A stretch of 35,254 nt of DNA, taken from positions 1 through 35,254 of IMG/VR virus record IMGVR_UViG_3300012031_000039. The stretch is one strand, 5' to 3'. The translations under genes were made by a program, and so were the position numbers. Each line of letters begins with the position of its first letter. Within the stretch, counting starts at the first letter, position 1. Source of the DNA: a virus. Taxonomy: Duplodnaviria > Caudoviricetes. Shown here one piece after another: positions 8,676 to 28,360 of the stretch. The notes under the pieces are model-generated. The model did no database searches and was not told the DNA's origin. It worked only from the letters and a program-made list of their open reading frames with translations.

Positions 8676-9277
8676 TATGTGCGTCTTTTATTACCTTTTT
8701 TATTGTTTTCGTTCTGCTTTTTTATCTGCTGTATCTTCTGATCAAATAGCTTTTTAAGCGCGTAGAACTGTGTAACTGTTATTTTGTTAGTGTCAAAGTT
8801 TAAACCTACTACTGATGAATACCCTAAAATAACTTCATCTATGTTTTGTGCTTTGTCTTTTGAGTCTTTTTCTTTTTTAGGTAATTTAGCGGCTTGTTCG
8901 TTTATCAATAACTGTATTGCTTCAACTTCAACTTCTACCTTATCTAGATCTGTAGTGTAGGATTGCTCTTTTAATTTAAAACCCTGTGATCTAATTAGGT
9001 TTTCTAGATCTAAGTCTCTCTCAAACCTAAGAGCTTGTACTGTTATTTTTATAGCATTGTACTGTGCTGTATATTTTGTGAACTTTATTAATGTTCCTAA
9101 GAGTTTATCTATGTTATTTTCAGGATCCAACTCATTAAAATCCTTTTCTAAAGTCTTCCAGACTTTTTCTGTATCAAATGCTTCTTTGTTCTCTGTAGAA
9201 AGAAGAGTGTAATCTCCAGTCTTCAGTATTTTAAGAAATAATTTTAAAGGTAATTCATCTAAGGATTTATAAAACAT
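8675..9277 (-). CDS. Probable tail assembly chaperone
   Basis: Immediately upstream of the tape measure with a 1-nt stop/start overlap; helical. Synteny only. Confidence 0.5.
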   Translation of the reverse strand: MFYKSLDELPLKLFLKILKTGDYTLLSTENKEAFDTEKVWKTLEKDFNELDPENNIDKLLGTLIKFTKYTAQYNAIKITVQALRFERDLDLENLIRSQGFKLKEQSYTTDLDKVEVEVEAIQLLINEQAAKLPKKEKDSKDKAQNIDEVILGYSSVVGLNFDTNKITVTQFYALKKLFDQKIQQIKKQNENNKKGNKRRT

Positions 9278-9307
9278 TTTGCCATTGATTTAACACAGCC
9301 AACAGTT

Positions 9308-9784
9308 CTAAATACCTAAAGCTTCTCTAGCAACCGATAACATATGTGGTTTTATTTGTTCTTGTATCACTGAGAATTTATTTTCTTGTGTGAGACCAAA
9401 AAAGCTTTTACTTAATAACCTAACATTTGATAAAATATCATCTAACTTAGGATCTGATGAGCCAAAATTGATAAAATCTCTTGATACTTTTGCGAAAATA
9501 CTTGGAAGAAATATATTTTTATCTTTAAAGTCGTAAGGTTCACCTTCTCCTTTTATTCTACTTGATCCACCCAACAGTGCATCATTTGTAGTAATAAATT
9601 CGGTGGCTCTAGAGTAGTACCCTAGAGGATCACCGAATATATCTACACTTTTTTCAAATATTTGATCTCTGTTTAGCTCAGCCAAAAGAGGTTCTATTGA
9701 CTCAACAAAACCAAATAAGAGTTTACTTAGATTTGCTGGAGTCACTGTTTGCGCTTTTCTCAGCTGCTGGTTTAGTGTCCCCAT
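9308..9784 (-). CDS. Putative neck/tail-completion protein
   Basis: 158 aa ORF within the tail module; call by position. Confidence 0.45.
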   Translation of the reverse strand: MGTLNQQLRKAQTVTPANLSKLLFGFVESIEPLLAELNRDQIFEKSVDIFGDPLGYYSRATEFITTNDALLGGSSRIKGEGEPYDFKDKNIFLPSIFAKVSRDFINFGSSDPKLDDILSNVRLLSKSFFGLTQENKFSVIQEQIKPHMLSVAREALGI

Positions 9785-9977
9785 CTTTGTAATTTTTTAT
9801 CTCTTCTTTTTGTTTAGCATTTACATTTTCACCTGTTACAGCTTTGAATGCATCTGCTAAATCTTTTCTACCAAATACTTTAAAGTGACTACTCAAGAAC
9901 TCTTGAAAAGTAGGATTGTAGTCACTTCTAAAAGTAGTATTTTTGAAGCTCTTAGCTTCTTGTTTTTGCTTTGACAT
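9723..9977 (-). CDS. Hypothetical protein (tail module)
   Basis: 84 aa, starts just after the major tail stop and overlaps the next gene by 62 nt. Confidence 0.55.
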   Translation of the reverse strand: MSKQKQEAKSFKNTTFRSDYNPTFQEFLSSHFKVFGRKDLADAFKAVTGENVNAKQKEEIKNYKDGDTKPAAEKSANSDSSKSK

Positions 9978-9983
9978 ATCTAA

Positions 9984-10871
9984 TTAGATTGTGAAGCTTG
10001 CACCTTGATTGTCTTCAAACATTGCTAAAGACTCTACAACAACTTCTGTTAATAGCTTACCTGAAACTAGACCTGAAGTTACAAACGTATATAAGTTTGC
10101 ATCATCTCCATTTCCAACAGTTACACTACTCAAAGCAGAAGTTTGATCGTCTCCGTTCTCTCTTTCTGCTTTAAAGTTTGCCAATGCTAAACCTGTCTTT
10201 TTAACTCCGTCGCAACCAGATGTTACTCTAGCTACAATTGACGTAGCCGTAGGTGTGCCAACGATTTGAACTTGTAAAGGGTATACACCTTTATAGCCTT
10301 CTACATCAAAATCAGGTGTTACAATTGCACCAGAAAGAGTCAACTCTTTAGGGTTTTTGTAAACAATATCAACTACAGTTGATTGAGGATCACCTTCAAT
10401 AACTGGTTCGATAATGTCACCGACTAAGAAACTAGAAAGAGATTGCCCTTGAACACTTCCATCAGCATTTTGAACACCTTTGATGTCTCCATCTGCAGTG
10501 AATTCATAAATACGAGTGTAAGAACTACCTTCATAGGATTGTAATGCTCCATGAGAACACAATCCTAAGTGATGCGTAAATGTTACGCCTTTTCTTGCTT
10601 CTTTTGTTTTTACTTTCAAAGTTCTACTTTCAAAGTAAGTAGGTTCAACGTTAGCTAGCGCTGAGCTCTCTACAGAGAACATAACGACAACATCTTTAGC
10701 TTGTTTAGCTGAGTCCCATGCTAATTTGCTTCTAAAAGCTGCTAAGCTTGCAAATTTCTGGTCTTCAGTTGCTAAAGCGTAACCTACTGTAGGGCCGTAC
10801 AAACACTGTTTGCCAACTCCTGTATTTAGTGGAGTGTTACTATCTCCACATCTATCTATTACTACATTCAT
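9984..10871 (-). CDS. Major tail (tube) protein
   Basis: 295 aa, Gly/Val/Thr/Ser-rich, between head-tail genes and tape measure; possible C-terminal Ig-like domain. Confidence 0.7.
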   Translation of the reverse strand: MNVVIDRCGDSNTPLNTGVGKQCLYGPTVGYALATEDQKFASLAAFRSKLAWDSAKQAKDVVVMFSVESSALANVEPTYFESRTLKVKTKEARKGVTFTHHLGLCSHGALQSYEGSSYTRIYEFTADGDIKGVQNADGSVQGQSLSSFLVGDIIEPVIEGDPQSTVVDIVYKNPKELTLSGAIVTPDFDVEGYKGVYPLQVQIVGTPTATSIVARVTSGCDGVKKTGLALANFKAERENGDDQTSALSSVTVGNGDDANLYTFVTSGLVSGKLLTEVVVESLAMFEDNQGASFTI

Positions 10872-22864: not shown

Positions 22865-23026
22865 TCAATGTGTTTTTACTTCTTCGTCCCAATTTGGAAA
22901 TCTTCTTATAAATAGTCTTACATCTGCCCTATATAGATCTAATGAAAGTCTTACTATAGATTTTGAGTGTAGCAGTGGTTTCCATTTTCTATTTAAAATA
23001 TCGTGCTGCTCTTGTGCTTCTCTCAC
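22865..23026 (-). CDS. Small hypothetical protein (53 aa, GTG start)
   Basis: Manual translation MREAQEQHDILNRKWKPLLHSKSIVRLSLDLYRADVRLFIRRFPNWDEEVKTH; GTGA overlap with the denV stop. Confidence 0.55.
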   Translation of the reverse strand: MREAQEQHDILNRKWKPLLHSKSIVRLSLDLYRADVRLFIRRFPNWDEEVKTH

Positions 23027-23436
23027 AGTTTCATAGTTTTTAGTTCAACTTTTTCACCTCTGTATCTTATCACTTTCATAGTAGAAAGCCTCTCGTTTAT
23101 CCTTTCAACTAACATAGATCTTACTGTGTTATCAGGTTTCCAATCATTTAGAAGATCATCAGGAAGATCATGGAAAGCATCGCTGTAGTCTTGAATAGAG
23201 AAACCTCTATCTTTACACTCAATGCGAATAGCAGTGTATCTTGTGTACAAATAATAAAGCTTATCATAGAAGAACTTTACATGACCTGCACCTAATCTAA
23301 AATCATTAGGAATGTCTTCAACTTTTGCTTTTCCAGATATTATACAGTTTGGAATTCTTACTATTTCTCTGTGTTCAGCTAAAAGCATTTGATCACACAG
23401 TTCTGATGGTTGTATTGATGCACTTATTCTAGTCAT
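23023..23436 (-). CDS. denV: Pyrimidine-dimer DNA glycosylase (T4 endonuclease V family)
   Basis: N-terminal MTRI (catalytic Thr2), DQMLLAEHREIVRI (catalytic Glu), FRLGAGHVKFFYDKL, RGF. Confidence 0.93.
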   Translation of the reverse strand: MTRISASIQPSELCDQMLLAEHREIVRIPNCIISGKAKVEDIPNDFRLGAGHVKFFYDKLYYLYTRYTAIRIECKDRGFSIQDYSDAFHDLPDDLLNDWKPDNTVRSMLVERINERLSTMKVIRYRGEKVELKTMKL

Positions 23437-23695: not shown

Positions 23696-24496
23696 TCATA
23701 TCTCTACTTCTTTACCTGTTACAATCCTGTAGATCTCTCTAGTAAGCTTCACGTCATAGACGCCATTGTGCAGCATTACATCTTCTACATACAATCCTAA
23801 TTCTTCAGCTACTGTCTTAAGTTTGAAGTTTGGCATCGACACTCTTCTTTCAATGAGATATTCACATGCTAAAACCATAACATCTAATGAGTCACCCCAA
23901 AACCAAGAACCAAAATATGTATCTCCGTTTTGTTCAAACCATCTTCTTAAGAAAACATCATCAAACTTTCTGTTGTTAAACCCTACTAGATACATTTTAT
24001 CTTTTCTATCGTATCTATCACAGTATCTCTCTAATATTGATACAAACTCAATATGAGCATCTTTCATATCTTGATATACAAGTATTTCATCTTCTAAAAC
24101 ATTACCTACTAGAAGAGCCTTAGGTTCAATTATTGCTTTTGGGTGTGGTCTTGTTTTAATGTCAAATTCTTCTACTATTTCACCATTGAATTCTACAACA
24201 CCAGCTATTTGGTGTATGCTGTTTTTACGTTCGTCAGTTCCAGTAGTTTCTAGATCATAAAATATTTTTATGATGTCGTCTCTTGTTTTGAATTTCATAG
24301 TTTGTATTTTTTCGTGTAGTTGTGGAAACATTTCCATGTATTTATTCATGTATCTTATTACATGGATTGTGAATTTATGTTGAGGTACATCAATGAACTT
24401 TTCTTTGAGTCTAACAACAGCTACTCTATAGCCATTTGAGTGATCATAGAGTGTGTTGTTTTCTCTCGTGTATTTTCCTGACTCAATTAGTTTCAT
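23696..24496 (-). CDS. DEDDh 3'-5' exonuclease (DnaQ-like) with N-terminal extension
   Basis: ExoI FYDLETTG, ExoII VGFNNRKFDDVFL, ExoIII LHNGVYDV. Confidence 0.9.
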   Translation of the reverse strand: MKLIESGKYTRENNTLYDHSNGYRVAVVRLKEKFIDVPQHKFTIHVIRYMNKYMEMFPQLHEKIQTMKFKTRDDIIKIFYDLETTGTDERKNSIHQIAGVVEFNGEIVEEFDIKTRPHPKAIIEPKALLVGNVLEDEILVYQDMKDAHIEFVSILERYCDRYDRKDKMYLVGFNNRKFDDVFLRRWFEQNGDTYFGSWFWGDSLDVMVLACEYLIERRVSMPNFKLKTVAEELGLYVEDVMLHNGVYDVKLTREIYRIVTGKEVEI

Positions 24497-25154
24497 TCCT
24501 GTTTAAAAAGTCATTATACAAGTGCAGATCTGCTGCATAGTGGAAGTATGTACCTGTTTTAAGTTTCATCTCTTTTGCTACTAATTTATGCATCTCTGAG
24601 AAACAGTATTGATCATTGCAAAAACCAAACCATAGATCATTGGATCTCATCAGAACTGTCATATCTAGTTTTTCACCACAGTCTGAGACTTCAAAACCTA
24701 TGTTAAGCGTACATGGTGTATCATGGCGATAGTCTTTCTTTTCTTTACCATCGAAAATGGAAAGCCATGCATGTCTAGTCGTAGAGTCGTGTTGTAGCTG
24801 AGAAATACATTTTTCAATTTGGTTGTTTCTATTCCACTGCCACCCATAGTTACTGTTGACTATGTTGTCACCGTTGTGCATTATGTCCCAAATAGGTGCA
24901 AACTTTTTTAATTCTTCTACACTTCTATTTTGTGATAAGTACCAATCAAATTCTCTCTTAGCATACTTGTCATTCCAGTTTCTAAAAGGTGTTTCTATGT
25001 GATTGTCTTCTGGTTTCAAAATATAGAAACCTATATTTCTAAGTCTCTTAGTGCCATTTGCTCTTTGAGTGCCTTCTGAGTTTATCTTATTGTAAAAATA
25101 ATCAAAGGCATCTTCTGCTGTGTGGAATGTGTTTATGTACGAATGTATGCTCAT
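24483..25154 (-). CDS. Thymidylate-synthase-family enzyme, dCMP hydroxymethylase-like (T4 gp42 type)
   Basis: NSNYGW, DTPCT (catalytic Cys), MRSNDLWFGFCND with Asp at the base-specificity position (Asn177 in E. coli ThyA), and DLHLY. Confidence 0.85.
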   Translation of the reverse strand: MSIHSYINTFHTAEDAFDYFYNKINSEGTQRANGTKRLRNIGFYILKPEDNHIETPFRNWNDKYAKREFDWYLSQNRSVEELKKFAPIWDIMHNGDNIVNSNYGWQWNRNNQIEKCISQLQHDSTTRHAWLSIFDGKEKKDYRHDTPCTLNIGFEVSDCGEKLDMTVLMRSNDLWFGFCNDQYCFSEMHKLVAKEMKLKTGTYFHYAADLHLYNDFLNRNETN

Positions 25155-25156
25155 AT

Positions 25157-25624
25157 CTAATAACTTCTTTTTTGTCTGTTTCTGTTCTCTACATTTTTAG
25201 CCATGTAGTAGTTGTAAATAGTTTTTGAGTCTAACCCTAAAGACACAGCATAGTTCATAAAGAAATGTAGTTTGTCTACGAATTCCATTACAAGTTCTTT
25301 CTTATCATTTTCAGTGAGATCAGAGAGCTTCATTTGTGAAGCTTTCGGGTGGTCTTTCTTCCATGGCTTCCAAACAGCATTTCCAATGCCATCATTTATG
25401 CCACCTAATGCATCAAACATTTCATGGTCTTCATCGCCTTCTGCGTGTTTGTTCATCAACCAAAAATTCTTTATGTCATTAAGTGACATAGTGTCAAAAT
25501 CGTAGTTGTAAATCTTAGTCTGAGTATCTCTTTGAAGTTCTAAGATGTCACCTAGTGTATCTTTAGAGTCTTTAAATAGGTCTAGTATTTCTAAACCTGA
25601 ACAAATGTTGTCTGTGTTTGCCAT
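25157..25624 (-). CDS. All-alpha NTP pyrophosphatase (dCTPase/dimeric dUTPase, T4 gp56-like)
   Basis: EDHEMFDA, WKPWKK, EFVDKLHFFMN, YMAKNVENRNRQKRSY. Confidence 0.85.
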   Translation of the reverse strand: MANTDNICSGLEILDLFKDSKDTLGDILELQRDTQTKIYNYDFDTMSLNDIKNFWLMNKHAEGDEDHEMFDALGGINDGIGNAVWKPWKKDHPKASQMKLSDLTENDKKELVMEFVDKLHFFMNYAVSLGLDSKTIYNYYMAKNVENRNRQKRSY

Positions 25625-25627
25625 CTT

Positions 25628-26191
25628 TTATTGTTTTACTATTAATTTTTCTATGTTTACTATGTTTTGTGCAGTAGAAGCTATCACATGTATTTGTGGC
25701 TGCTCACTGTACACTGGATCTATAAAAAACTCTTTTATGAGGTTTATGTCATATAACAATTCGTTTTTTATGTCAGACGCTCTAAAGAACAGTTTTACAG
25801 TGTCTTGAAAATAATGGATGATATTAAGACAACTCGTATTAACTGTATCATCCATGTAGTCTGAAAGTTTGTCAGCTATTACGACTACACATCTTCTGCT
25901 TTTGTCTTTGTTTCTTGAAACTGTTTCAATGATTGATCTAAAATCCATGTCGTTTTTCATCATAGCTGATACTGTATAAATAGTACCTATTAGATTTGAC
26001 TGCTCTTCTACATTTGTGAAAGATTTTCTATGTAAGAAACCCTCCATTGATTTTATAGAAATGTCCATGTTTGAAAAAGCTTTTCTTTTAGCAAACATGT
26101 AGCTGTCTTCTATTTGGTTTATCTGATCAGCTCTGTCTATTCTAAAATAGTAAGAGTCGTCATTGAAAAGAGGATATTTATATATATTCAT
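25628..26191 (-). CDS. Divergent thymidylate-synthase-fold protein
   Basis: KSRRCVV, TSCLNIIHY and FFRASDIKNELLYD align with the TS SRR, PC and RSxD...N/D motifs. Confidence 0.6.
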   Translation of the reverse strand: MNIYKYPLFNDDSYYFRIDRADQINQIEDSYMFAKRKAFSNMDISIKSMEGFLHRKSFTNVEEQSNLIGTIYTVSAMMKNDMDFRSIIETVSRNKDKSRRCVVVIADKLSDYMDDTVNTSCLNIIHYFQDTVKLFFRASDIKNELLYDINLIKEFFIDPVYSEQPQIHVIASTAQNIVNIEKLIVKQ

Positions 26192-26193
26192 AA

Positions 26194-26655
26194 CTACATT
26201 ATTTGAAACAACTGCATGAGTCTTGCCAAGTTGTTTGGATTTACTCTTATTTTATTCATAGAAACAGCATAAAATATAGCTTCGTACATCTTTCTAGCTG
26301 CTAATATTTGATCATATGAAAAAGCTTCATTTCTTTCACTGTCAAAAACGAAGTCTTCTTCTCTGTCAACGAGTATAAACAAACAGTTTTGACTTTCAAA
26401 TATCTTTTGAAGTTCTACTGGATTTTTTACTCTGTGCTTTTGGTCTCTAAATAGACTGTATACCATTTCTGATACAAAGTTTCTATCAGAAATGGTTTTT
26501 TTAGGTGTTATATAGTGACTGTGAAAATCAAATTTCTCATCTGGTTTATCAAAGTGAATTATAGGCCATCCTAAAGTTTGACTTAGTTTTTCACACAGCT
26601 GAGATTTACCTTGCTGATCTGCACCTTCTACTATTATCTTATCTATTTTTATCAT
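26194..26655 (-). CDS. P-loop dNMP kinase (thymidylate kinase-like)
   Basis: IIVEGADQQGKS Walker A and SDRNFVSEMVY (DR motif). Confidence 0.85.
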   Translation of the reverse strand: MIKIDKIIVEGADQQGKSQLCEKLSQTLGWPIIHFDKPDEKFDFHSHYITPKKTISDRNFVSEMVYSLFRDQKHRVKNPVELQKIFESQNCLFILVDREEDFVFDSERNEAFSYDQILAARKMYEAIFYAVSMNKIRVNPNNLARLMQLFQIM

Positions 26656-28360
26656 CTAATATCAATAAATAGGTTTTCTGTTCTACGTCTTTTAGCTTTT
26701 GCTTTCTAAAATCAATAACAGCGTCTACACTAGAGCAAACTATGGGGTTGCCGTGAGTATTAAATGAAGTGTTTATCACACATAGACTGTTCACATTTTC
26801 TAGAATGCTAGAAATATTACTCTGTGAACACCTAGAAATAACTTGAGGTCTACCACTAAAGTTAGTAGTTTTTGGGTATTTATGCATAACGCCTCTGTAC
26901 TCCATATGCTCAACAGCATCTTCATTAAAATCATCTGTTATTATCATGTATTCGTTTGATCTTATGACTCTAGATCTATCTAAATGACTTCTAAATAAAT
27001 CTATATAATTTTTCTCTAAAAGTACAGGCGCCATAGGCATTACTGTATTTCTACTATTGAGCATGTTTATATAATCTACATTCTCTTTAGTTGGTAAAGC
27101 TAATGTACTTGTGTTACATAAAGCTCTTGGGCCAAATTCTAAATCTCCTTGTATGATATTAACTACCTTATCTTCGTTGATTAATTGAGCTACTTTAGAG
27201 ATAAACTCATTAGGTTCAGTAAAATGCATAATTCTAGAGTCTTCTACTTTGTGGTCTAATGATCTCACACCGTAGCACAGATCAAAGAACTTAAAATCGC
27301 CTATGTATTTTTGGTACATTCCAATTGCTGCACCTTGATCACCAGAAAGAGGCATTACACATATGTCACCTTCTATGGTTTTCTTTATTGCATTATTGAG
27401 TTTCACATTGTAGAAACAACCGCCAGAGAGAACTATGTTTTTGACATTTAAACTTGATATGAGCTTAGTCATTATGTTTTCTACACAGTACTGAATGTAG
27501 TAACCTATTATGTGTCTTTTGAGATGATTTATTATCTCTTCTGAGCCACTCTGAAGTGTTTTCATAACGTTGTCAAACTGTATATTGAATATAGATTCAG
27601 CAGTCATTAGAGCTTCTACATCAATGTAGCCTTCGTGTGTTTTCTCCTTCTTCTGTTTAAATATACCTAGTATTTTCAAATAGTTTTCTATATAAGTGTC
27701 AGCTAACTCTTCTATTGTTCTAAGTTGCTGCCTAGAAATATAATCTAGAATGTGAGCTTCATAACCTAGAAACTTATATTCATCTTGATTTTCTTTCATA
27801 CCACAGTAAGAACATGCATACTGGTACATCAAACCCATAGAGTTCATGTAGTCATAGTATCTGCTTTGTAGTTCTAGTTTTCCAGTCTTTGTGTTGTATC
27901 TATAGAAAGACATCACCTCTTCGTTGTTACCAAAACCATCTGCTACTAAGAAATGAAAGTCACCTAGGTTTTTTCTCTCTACTTTTTCTAAGATAAAAGC
28001 TAAACTAGAGTAAGCGTGAGCGTCATGATGAGTGAAGTTCTCTGAGAGGTTTACGATTTTCATATCATACTTCTTACATAGATTGTTTATGTAAAAATGG
28101 TTGAAATACTTATCTGGAAATGAAGATTGATCAAAATTATCAAACCAGTGTGAAATAAATATTCTAGCTCCGTAAAGCTGAGAGTCGTCTATGTTTTCTA
28201 TGATCTTATTTATAGAAGACGAAGGAAATGAAGAGTCAGATTTTTTAAGCGTTAGTCTCTCTTCTTCATAACCTACTGGCTTGTCTATGCCGTTGAAAAA
28301 TACAGCACTCGAATTGTGCCCCAATGTAATCATTAAGGCACATTTGTTTTGTTCTTGCAT
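26639..28360 (-). CDS. O-carbamoyltransferase (NodU/CmcH/TobZ family)
   Basis: GHNSSA, EEERLT, HHDAHAYS, DGFG, EYKFLG, SGGCFYNVKLN, GDQGAAIG, EFGPRAL, NTSFNTHGNPIV. Confidence 0.95.
   Translation of the reverse strand: MQEQNKCALMITLGHNSSAVFFNGIDKPVGYEEERLTLKKSDSSFPSSSINKIIENIDDSQLYGARIFISHWFDNFDQSSFPDKYFNHFYINNLCKKYDMKIVNLSENFTHHDAHAYSSLAFILEKVERKNLGDFHFLVADGFGNNEEVMSFYRYNTKTGKLELQSRYYDYMNSMGLMYQYACSYCGMKENQDEYKFLGYEAHILDYISRQQLRTIEELADTYIENYLKILGIFKQKKEKTHEGYIDVEALMTAESIFNIQFDNVMKTLQSGSEEIINHLKRHIIGYYIQYCVENIMTKLISSLNVKNIVLSGGCFYNVKLNNAIKKTIEGDICVMPLSGDQGAAIGMYQKYIGDFKFFDLCYGVRSLDHKVEDSRIMHFTEPNEFISKVAQLINEDKVVNIIQGDLEFGPRALCNTSTLALPTKENVDYINMLNSRNTVMPMAPVLLEKNYIDLFRSHLDRSRVIRSNEYMIITDDFNEDAVEHMEYRGVMHKYPKTTNFSGRPQVISRCSQSNISSILENVNSLCVINTSFNTHGNPIVCSSVDAVIDFRKQKLKDVEQKTYLLILDDKNR

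Follow-up and report, generated by a model that had tools for sequence, protein, structure and literature searches.

A thymidylate synthase-fold protein with a remodelled folate pocket is linked to carbamoyltransferase genes in phage loci

A gene in the DNA-modification cluster of a tailed phage encodes a protein, X, that represents an undescribed subfamily of thymidylate synthase (TS) homologues. The folate pocket of this subfamily is remodelled, and its linkage to cytosine carbamoylation is strict among the loci studied. The carbamoylated base has been demonstrated in vitro (PMC8670742), and such clusters are taken to end in it. Because 30 of the 51 dereplicated carbamoyltransferase loci with good coverage contain a second TS paralogue whose folate site is remodelled, virion DNA may hold a base other than the one described. 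A flavin-switched TS homologue reported in 2026 shows that this fold can change its reaction; X is a candidate for a further change of this kind. In the best reading, to which a probability of roughly 40% is given, the cysteine of X would drive the loss of carbamate from carbamoyloxymethyl-dCMP, and an amine or some other nucleophile would then take up the resulting methylene, so that a new base is formed.

The window, by which is meant the whole stretch of 35,254 nucleotides that was analysed, is a tailed-phage record, 77% complete, with head, tail and terminase genes and genes for a family A polymerase, a primase-helicase and an SNF2 helicase. Its minus strand carries a cluster of five tightly packed genes:

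26639..28360, minus strand: carbamoyltransferase of the NodU/TobZ type, 573 aa (Pfam PF02543 and PF16861; phrog_1601, E 2e-60)
26194..26655, minus strand: P-loop nucleotide kinase, 153 aa (phrog_761 thymidylate kinase, E 1.8e-8; weak AAA_28 match)
25628..26191, minus strand: X, TS-fold paralogue, 187 aa (AlphaFold model, Foldseek, profile alignment, family conservation)
25157..25624, minus strand: all-alpha NTP pyrophosphatase, dUTPase_2/MazG-like, 155 aa (phrog_173, E 3.5e-13; PF08761, E 9e-4)
24483..25154, minus strand: canonical Asp-type TS homologue, ThyA-like, 223 aa (PF00303, E 3e-21)

The carbamoyltransferase is predicted to be a 5-hydroxymethylcytosine O-carbamoyltransferase, a class whose activity has been demonstrated (PMC8670742). 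The kinase is likely to be a dNMP kinase for the modified nucleotide, and the pyrophosphatase is likely a dCTPase or dUTPase. The 223-aa TS homologue, referred to below as the neighbour TS, retains E68, W89, D145, C148, D173, G177, D181, H211 and Y213. As both the folate half and the nucleotide half of its active site are kept throughout, or almost throughout, a set of 16 sequences, and as T4 gp42 is the best PDB match of the family profile (E 1e-62), the neighbour TS is predicted, and likely, to be a folate-dependent dCMP hydroxymethylase. Its closest cultured match is in Bacteroides phages (57%). The combination of a carbamoyltransferase and an Asp-type TS is also that of the 5cmdC pathway clusters (Yang et al. 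2021, PMC8670742), in which these two genes co-occur with a pyrophosphatase, and the phage cluster is likely to swap DNA cytosine for a carbamoylated form. The sections of that account drawn on here describe one TS homologue; X is extra. Having no Pfam match, X would be invisible to the Pfam-based screen of that study. Among the 24 window ORFs scanned, none was recognised as a dCMP deaminase. After the cluster, at 23023-23436 and 23696-24496 on the minus strand, come a pyrimidine-dimer glycosylase resembling T4 endonuclease V and a DEDD exonuclease.

The X reading frame runs from an ATG to a TAA; it starts 2 nt past the kinase stop codon, and the next ATG lies 3 nt beyond its end. The original prediction, of a second and degenerate Asp-type TS-fold protein, quoted a set of short motifs, and all are present: KSRRCVV at residues 97-103, TSCL at 119-122, FRASDIKNELLYD at 136-148 and, with no HxY, HVIASTAQ at 168-175. 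Asp148 follows Arg137 by 11 residues, the same spacing as that between R170 and D181 of the neighbour TS. This pattern of motifs and spacings, defined after the protein had been seen, arises in 18 of 100,000 shuffled sequences. Searched against Pfam, X has no match, and against PHROGs it gives noise only; PF00303 is matched by none of 50 X homologues, and direct BLASTP of X against the neighbour TS finds nothing (best E 1.8). A profile of X aligns with a profile of 16 neighbouring TS proteins over 118 columns (probability 84, E 7e-6). Against PDB sequences, the best TS-family matches of the X profile are 9iqu and 9iqc, which are weak (E 0.89).

An AlphaFold model of X, made from a 50-row alignment, has a pLDDT of 96.8 and a pTM of 0.92. 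Its best Foldseek match is the dCMP hydroxymethylase gp42 of phage T4 (PDB 1B5D, 6A9A; E 5e-7, TM by query 0.57), followed by ThyA and by MilA (TM by query up to 0.67); the highest TM values by query, 0.64-0.67, belong to the CMP hydroxymethylases MilA/BcmA (PDB 5B6D), and the flavin monooxygenase 9iqc stands at rank 38. An E-value of 1e-3 or lower is reached by 353 of 763 matches, and every row among the matches listed is of the TS family. Structure matches in the ESM Atlas are also of the TS fold (TM 0.64-0.70), and together with the profile alignment and the Foldseek matches they establish the homology that BLASTP misses. By its modelled fold, X belongs to the TS/dCMP hydroxymethylase superfamily, as the original prediction had held. 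X is also predicted to be a homodimer. The two-copy model scores 0.90 against 0.01 for the best control, a pass that may reflect likeness to solved TS dimers; 20 of 30 solved homodimers pass the mark applied, as does 1 of 23 monomers. Two-copy runs show at least 97% contact agreement with pLDDT of at least 93, and the modelled interface takes in residues 98-104 and 137-138, in a predicted sheet-to-sheet dimer like that of gp42.

Searches for homologues of X returned 52 proteins among 80 candidates (X itself included) and 98 cluster representatives, with one spurious repeat protein. Once fragments, the repeat protein and near-duplicates had been dropped, 98 sequences remained in the alignment (A2), 26 from the first set and 72 from the second, and identity within the family ranges from roughly 25 to 60%. 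No cultured phage carrying X was found, and for no X-carrying phage is the modified base known. Full-text literature, with subscription journals and patents outside its scope, yielded no paper on a second TS paralogue in carbamoyltransferase clusters.

As judged from its residues, X keeps the half of the active site that activates the cytosine nucleotide, while the half that holds folate has been rebuilt. Positions in X were related to those in gp42 by sequence profiles, through the neighbour TS, and not by superposition. Among the 98 sequences, Y72 is kept in 98, C121 and R137 in 96 each, D140 in 90, R99 in 88 and R100 in 85, with Lys in ten more. D148, which corresponds to the cytosine-specific type of Asp at ThyA position 177, is present in 96; the conservation of Cys, Arg and Asp on which the original prediction depended is thus found across the homologues, as is its cytosine-type Asp. 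The water-activating position 118 (L143 in ThyA, D145 in gp42) is Asp in 75 and Asn in 20. All seven nucleotide-activating positions (the Cys, the Tyr, three Arg/Lys, and the Asp143-type and Asp177-type residues) are found together in 88 of the 98. The family has equivalents of gp42 Y96, R123, R124, D145, C148, R168, D171 and D179, and the X of this window retains Y72, R99, R100, N118, C121, R137, D140 and D148.

The roles assigned in gp42 are folate activation for E60, binding of the folate ring for Y56, I81, W82 and F174, cytosine for D179 and the attacking water for D145 (PMC6400193). X differs from gp42 at many of the remaining sites: E60 becomes Lys (K35, 97/98), W82 Leu or Phe, F174 Asn, G175 Glu (E144, 94/98), S169 Ala (A138, 95/98), H216 Gln (Q175, 96/98) and Y218 mostly Ile or Val. 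Lys35 and an acid at position 144 occur together in 96/98, and Glu at 35, Gly at 144, Trp at 58 and His at 175 are each found in 0/98. The His-x-Tyr motif for the 3'-OH is lost, with Tyr at position 177 in only 4/98. In this window the rebuilt folate pocket of X includes K35, S57, F58, N143 and E144 and the changed sugar site A138, Q175 and I177; the protein has no counterpart of the folate-tail residues R59 and R177, lacks the N-terminal helix and C-terminal tail, and is about 60 residues shorter than gp42, with which it shares 13% identity. To describe X as degenerate says too little, for the replacements at these sites vary hardly at all, which indicates a protein that is remodelled rather than decayed. 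MilA resembles X in having Ala at the Ser167 position and the specificity Asp, but it keeps Glu68, His216 and Tyr218, all lost in X, and has Lys133 where X has Arg (PMC5175136). Of the two ribose determinants of MilA, the X family has the first, Ala, in 95/98, while at the second it has Arg in 88 and Lys in 2.

X follows the carbamoyltransferase, and X is optional. A survey outward from X took in 47 loci, not dereplicated, with duplicates and the genome of the window itself among them. Of the 30 loci with at least 1.5 kb upstream, 29 have a carbamoyltransferase; in the exception, L040, the contig ends inside a kinase-UDG gene. Across the whole L040 contig, genes are open only if TAG is read as sense. 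The X cassette spans unlike phages, since the replicative polymerases nearby are not of one kind (family A in this window, family B-like in L002, DnaE in L004 and L052). A prokaryote genome collection gave one X match, on a 15-kb contig with the same cassette (L132:3769-9087). This contig belongs to a MAG titled Patescibacteria and may be a mis-binned phage; between its carbamoyltransferase and kinase lies a 553-aa gene that, by eye, resembles a glycosyltransferase fused to a UDG-like domain.

The survey outward from the carbamoyltransferase covered 78 viral loci and 4 cultured phages, one locus being without a called carbamoyltransferase ORF. X was found in 22, a different second paralogue, TS2, in 21, neither in 39 and both in none. 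After dereplication at 95%, with 4 kb upstream and 3 kb downstream required, X accounts for 17, TS2 for 13 and neither for 21 of 51, the share of X being inflated because the query alignment came from X loci. The mutual exclusion of X and TS2 is not a statistical result, since TS2 is nearly one clade. All 22 X genes of this set start between -34 and +1695 nt from the carbamoyltransferase end. On a FastTree tree of 62 carbamoyltransferases the X label needs four changes, three of them forced by well-supported branches, and the window's sister locus, L051, is without X in the same slot (contig 52% complete). X is absent from the complete genomes of Xp15, Effie, BF503P2 and G006, a lone match in Effie (13.7 bits, inside a 1123-aa frame) being judged spurious. 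In the complete genome G001 and in G002 (70%), X lies with the carbamoyltransferase and kinase, and the only canonical TS match is about 77 kb and about 39 kb away, respectively. The neighbour TS is matched by 1307 phage records, whereas two queries with X gave no real match among 50,697 records, and X is therefore not tied to hydroxymethylases in general. Together, the locus counts, the complete genomes without X, and G001 and G002 establish that X is both optional and linked to the carbamoyltransferase. This linkage may partly reflect a cassette inherited whole.

In the preferred reading, that of carbamate displacement, the neighbour TS would make hydroxymethyl-dCMP with folate and the carbamoyltransferase would carbamoylate the hydroxymethyl product, by analogy with known enzymes. 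The substrate of X would be the carbamoylated monophosphate, which would either be made as such or arise from the triphosphate through the neighbouring pyrophosphatase. C6 of 5-carbamoyloxymethyl-dCMP would be attacked by Cys121 and the carbamate would depart, leaving an exocyclic methylene; Lys35, at the site of gp42 Glu60, which protonates folate, would suit an anionic leaving group. An incoming nucleophile would then capture the methylene to yield a further-modified cytosine nucleotide. As no co-substrate gene consistently accompanies X in the dereplicated X loci (ATP-grasp 4/19, epimerase 7/19, UDG-like 8/19), the simplest candidates would be ammonia from the expelled carbamate, giving 5-aminomethyl-dCMP, or a host amino acid held by Lys35 and Glu144. 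The kinase and the phage polymerase would then place the product in DNA, varying the anti-nuclease coat.

Action on the carbamoylated nucleotide is the simplest reading because X is an optional Cys enzyme, tied to the carbamoyltransferase, apparently cytosine-activating and with residues unfit for folate. The original interpretation is partly supported: of its options, the first, activation through the Cys with carbamate as the leaving group, would be the best, because X tracks the carbamoyltransferase and not the hydroxymethylase. Carbamate can act as a leaving group. The last steps of the hydroxymethylase reaction run via an exocyclic methylene (PMC6400193), and thymidine hypermodification provides a precedent for a Cys, a leaving group, a methylene and capture by an amino acid (PMC8989533). 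There, the amino acid:DNA transferases M6 gp51 and ViI gp247 resemble the proposed X in their C5-CH2-O-leaving group, Cys at C6, exocyclic methylene and nucleophile capture, and their genes, like that of X, are optional add-ons; unlike X, they belong to the unrelated aGPT-Pplase2 family and work on a uracil base, with a phosphate leaving group and DNA as the substrate (PMC8989533). If carbamate displacement is correct, X would provide a cytosine counterpart of thymidine hypermodification, operating before replication through a new TS-superfamily reaction, and a carbamate-displacing enzyme would be a tool for labelling hydroxymethylcytosine. The substrates of the carbamoyltransferase bear on this: ssDNA is the best, hydroxymethyl-dCTP reaches about 60% and RNA is also used, with the monophosphate going unmentioned in the sections of the source drawn on here (PMC8670742). 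Were DNA the only in vivo substrate of the carbamoyltransferase, the carbamate would be out of reach of an enzyme that acts on mononucleotides, which counts against this reading.

TS2 occupies the same slot, in the order carbamoyltransferase, kinase and paralogue, in gut Bacteroides-type phages. This sister type occurs in 21 loci in all and is present in cultured Bacteroides phages, including BF503P2; two examples are:

L046:9456-10262: TS2 of the cultured phage BF503P2 (BF503P2_00036)
L074:12348-13142: TS2

TS2 is without Glu60 and Gly175, retains the Cys, the water-activating Asp, the specificity Asp and the His, and has an invariant Lys and Glu of its own at other folate-pocket positions; it keeps Ser and His at the sites where X has Ala138 and Gln175. 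A viral scan for TS2 placed 20 of 20 loci on contigs already in the carbamoyltransferase set, a result that is partly circular. As the distance between TS2 and X is not clearly smaller than that of either to the canonical enzyme, two separate recruitments are suggested. A wider and more tentative proposal would be that phages twice recruited a folate-free TS paralogue (X and the Bacteroides-phage type) whose reaction at a cytosine nucleotide has an O-carbamate as the leaving group. Carbamoylation would in that case serve for activation, and the base in the DNA would be an undescribed one, for example 5-aminomethylcytosine or an amino-acid-linked cytosine.

A serious rival, overlooked in the original prediction, comes from flavin-dependent dCMP hydroxylases, in which folate-site loss is of the same kind. 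X could have switched cofactor and act on unmodified dCMP or CMP, in the manner of the FMN-dependent 5-hydroxy-dCMP synthases RB69 gp48 and DLP3 gp80 (PDB 9IQC), and so provide a second acceptor base and mixed modifications; this is considered unlikely. The proven hydroxylases are Asp177-type TS homologues that have moved off folate chemistry, with a changed folate site and flavin in place of folate (PMC13326640). Folate-site loss in X fits a cofactor switch equally well, because RB69 gp48 also appears to be without the Glu, Trp and Gly; in a low-identity alignment it has Phe, Val and Asn at the Glu60, Gly175 and Asp171 positions. The weak PDB profile matches of X point the same way, 9iqc being a riboflavin-dependent monooxygenase, and in 17 of 21 loci the TS2 that fills this slot carries D169N, the FMN-hydroxylase signature, making TS2 a candidate flavin hydroxylase or else a functional analogue of X. 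D169N in TS2 and the folate-site loss of RB69 gp48 are the main evidence against carbamate displacement, though X itself fails the published signature (Asp 90/98, Asn 1/98). Foldseek, moreover, puts gp42, ThyA and MilA ahead of 9iqc, X has a charged Lys/Glu pair where the hydroxylase is hydrophobic, and strict linkage to a carbamoyltransferase would be needless for a stand-alone hydroxylase. The FMN-dependent synthases have D169N and lie beside glycosyltransferases as the only base-building TS (PMC13326640), whereas X keeps the Asp and sits with a carbamoyltransferase plus a canonical hydroxymethylase.

It is rather improbable that X eliminates the carbamate and captures the methylene with water or hydride, as a salvage or tuning step giving hydroxymethyl-dCMP, or 5-methyl-dCMP for thymidine via a deaminase; in that event the base finally present in the DNA would be the one already known. 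Asp or Asn at position 118 would fit plain hydrolysis, as would the want of a consistent co-substrate gene, and Ala at the Ser167 position, which opens the MilA pocket to ribose (PMC5175136), would suit the removal of stray ribonucleotides. Nucleotides of 5-methylcytosine can also be converted to thymidine by an existing route (bioRxiv 2024.12.05.627091). However, reversal of an ATP-costing step looks futile, 21 of the 51 well-covered loci do without any second paralogue, and deaminase genes are common without X too (14/19 X loci, 16/32 loci with neither paralogue), with none seen near the present cluster.

Quite improbable is a non-catalytic or regulatory role, with X as the heterodimer subunit of the hydroxymethylase that had been proposed, as a channelling subunit of the carbamoyltransferase or kinase, or as a nucleotide-binding protein. 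The operon is tightly packed, the folate and 3'-OH residues are lost, and TS-fold sheets could in principle pair between paralogues. Against this, Cys (96/98), Tyr (98/98) and Asp (96/98) persist at such low identities within a full catalytic set, a homodimer is predicted, and in G001 and G002 the X gene stays when the hydroxymethylase moves away, all of which weakens the heterodimer. Fusion analysis found no fused X, the longest true match being 268 aa, with none among proteins of 470-2000 aa, which is weak evidence. A partnership with the kinase, also suggested at the outset, has adjacency in its favour, but the kinase is present in loci without X as well. Least probable of all is other covalent chemistry or another substrate (the modified base in ssDNA, a ribonucleotide, or folate-free addition of a free aldehyde), for although both 3'-OH-binding residues are replaced, Ala stands at the Ser167 position, the N-terminal helix and C-terminal tail are missing, ssDNA is favoured by the carbamoyltransferase (PMC8670742) and Cys-type C5 enzymes destabilise C5 substituents without a cofactor (PMC11347137), X retains the Arg clamp for the monophosphate and has Arg, not the Lys of MilA, at the second ribose determinant, and TS2 keeps Ser and His at those sites.

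Several further features of these loci were observed. A UDG-like domain, often fused to the kinase, is found in 8/19 dereplicated X loci, 0/16 TS2 loci and 3/32 others (examples are L068:11912-13225, L003:4894-5634, L004:4611-5342, L041:517-2433 and L040:2-1171). In one group of X phages an ATP-grasp gene (PF15632) adjoins the carbamoyltransferase (L008:4957-6231, L015:4694-5989, L021:2946-4235) and, at a guess, might supply carbamoyl phosphate. Beside Muddy TS, the 297-aa Muddy gp47 (L151:11047-11940) has no match to the X, canonical or TS2 profiles. A TS homologue near X is split by an intein with an HNH domain (L031:1570-3354), and at L002:715-2394 the carbamoyltransferase lies in two ORFs, through a frameshift or a sequencing error. 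A third altered TS, with Gln at Glu60 and Glu at Asp171, is the sole TS beside the carbamoyltransferase at L104:7788-8837, L123:9006-9992 and L090-L093 (near 9150-9995). In a group of loci that has no second paralogue (L110:9675-9998, L121:8640-8960), the TS and carbamoyltransferase are flanked by genes for a GNAT acetyltransferase and a protein resembling dATP/dGTP diphosphohydrolases.
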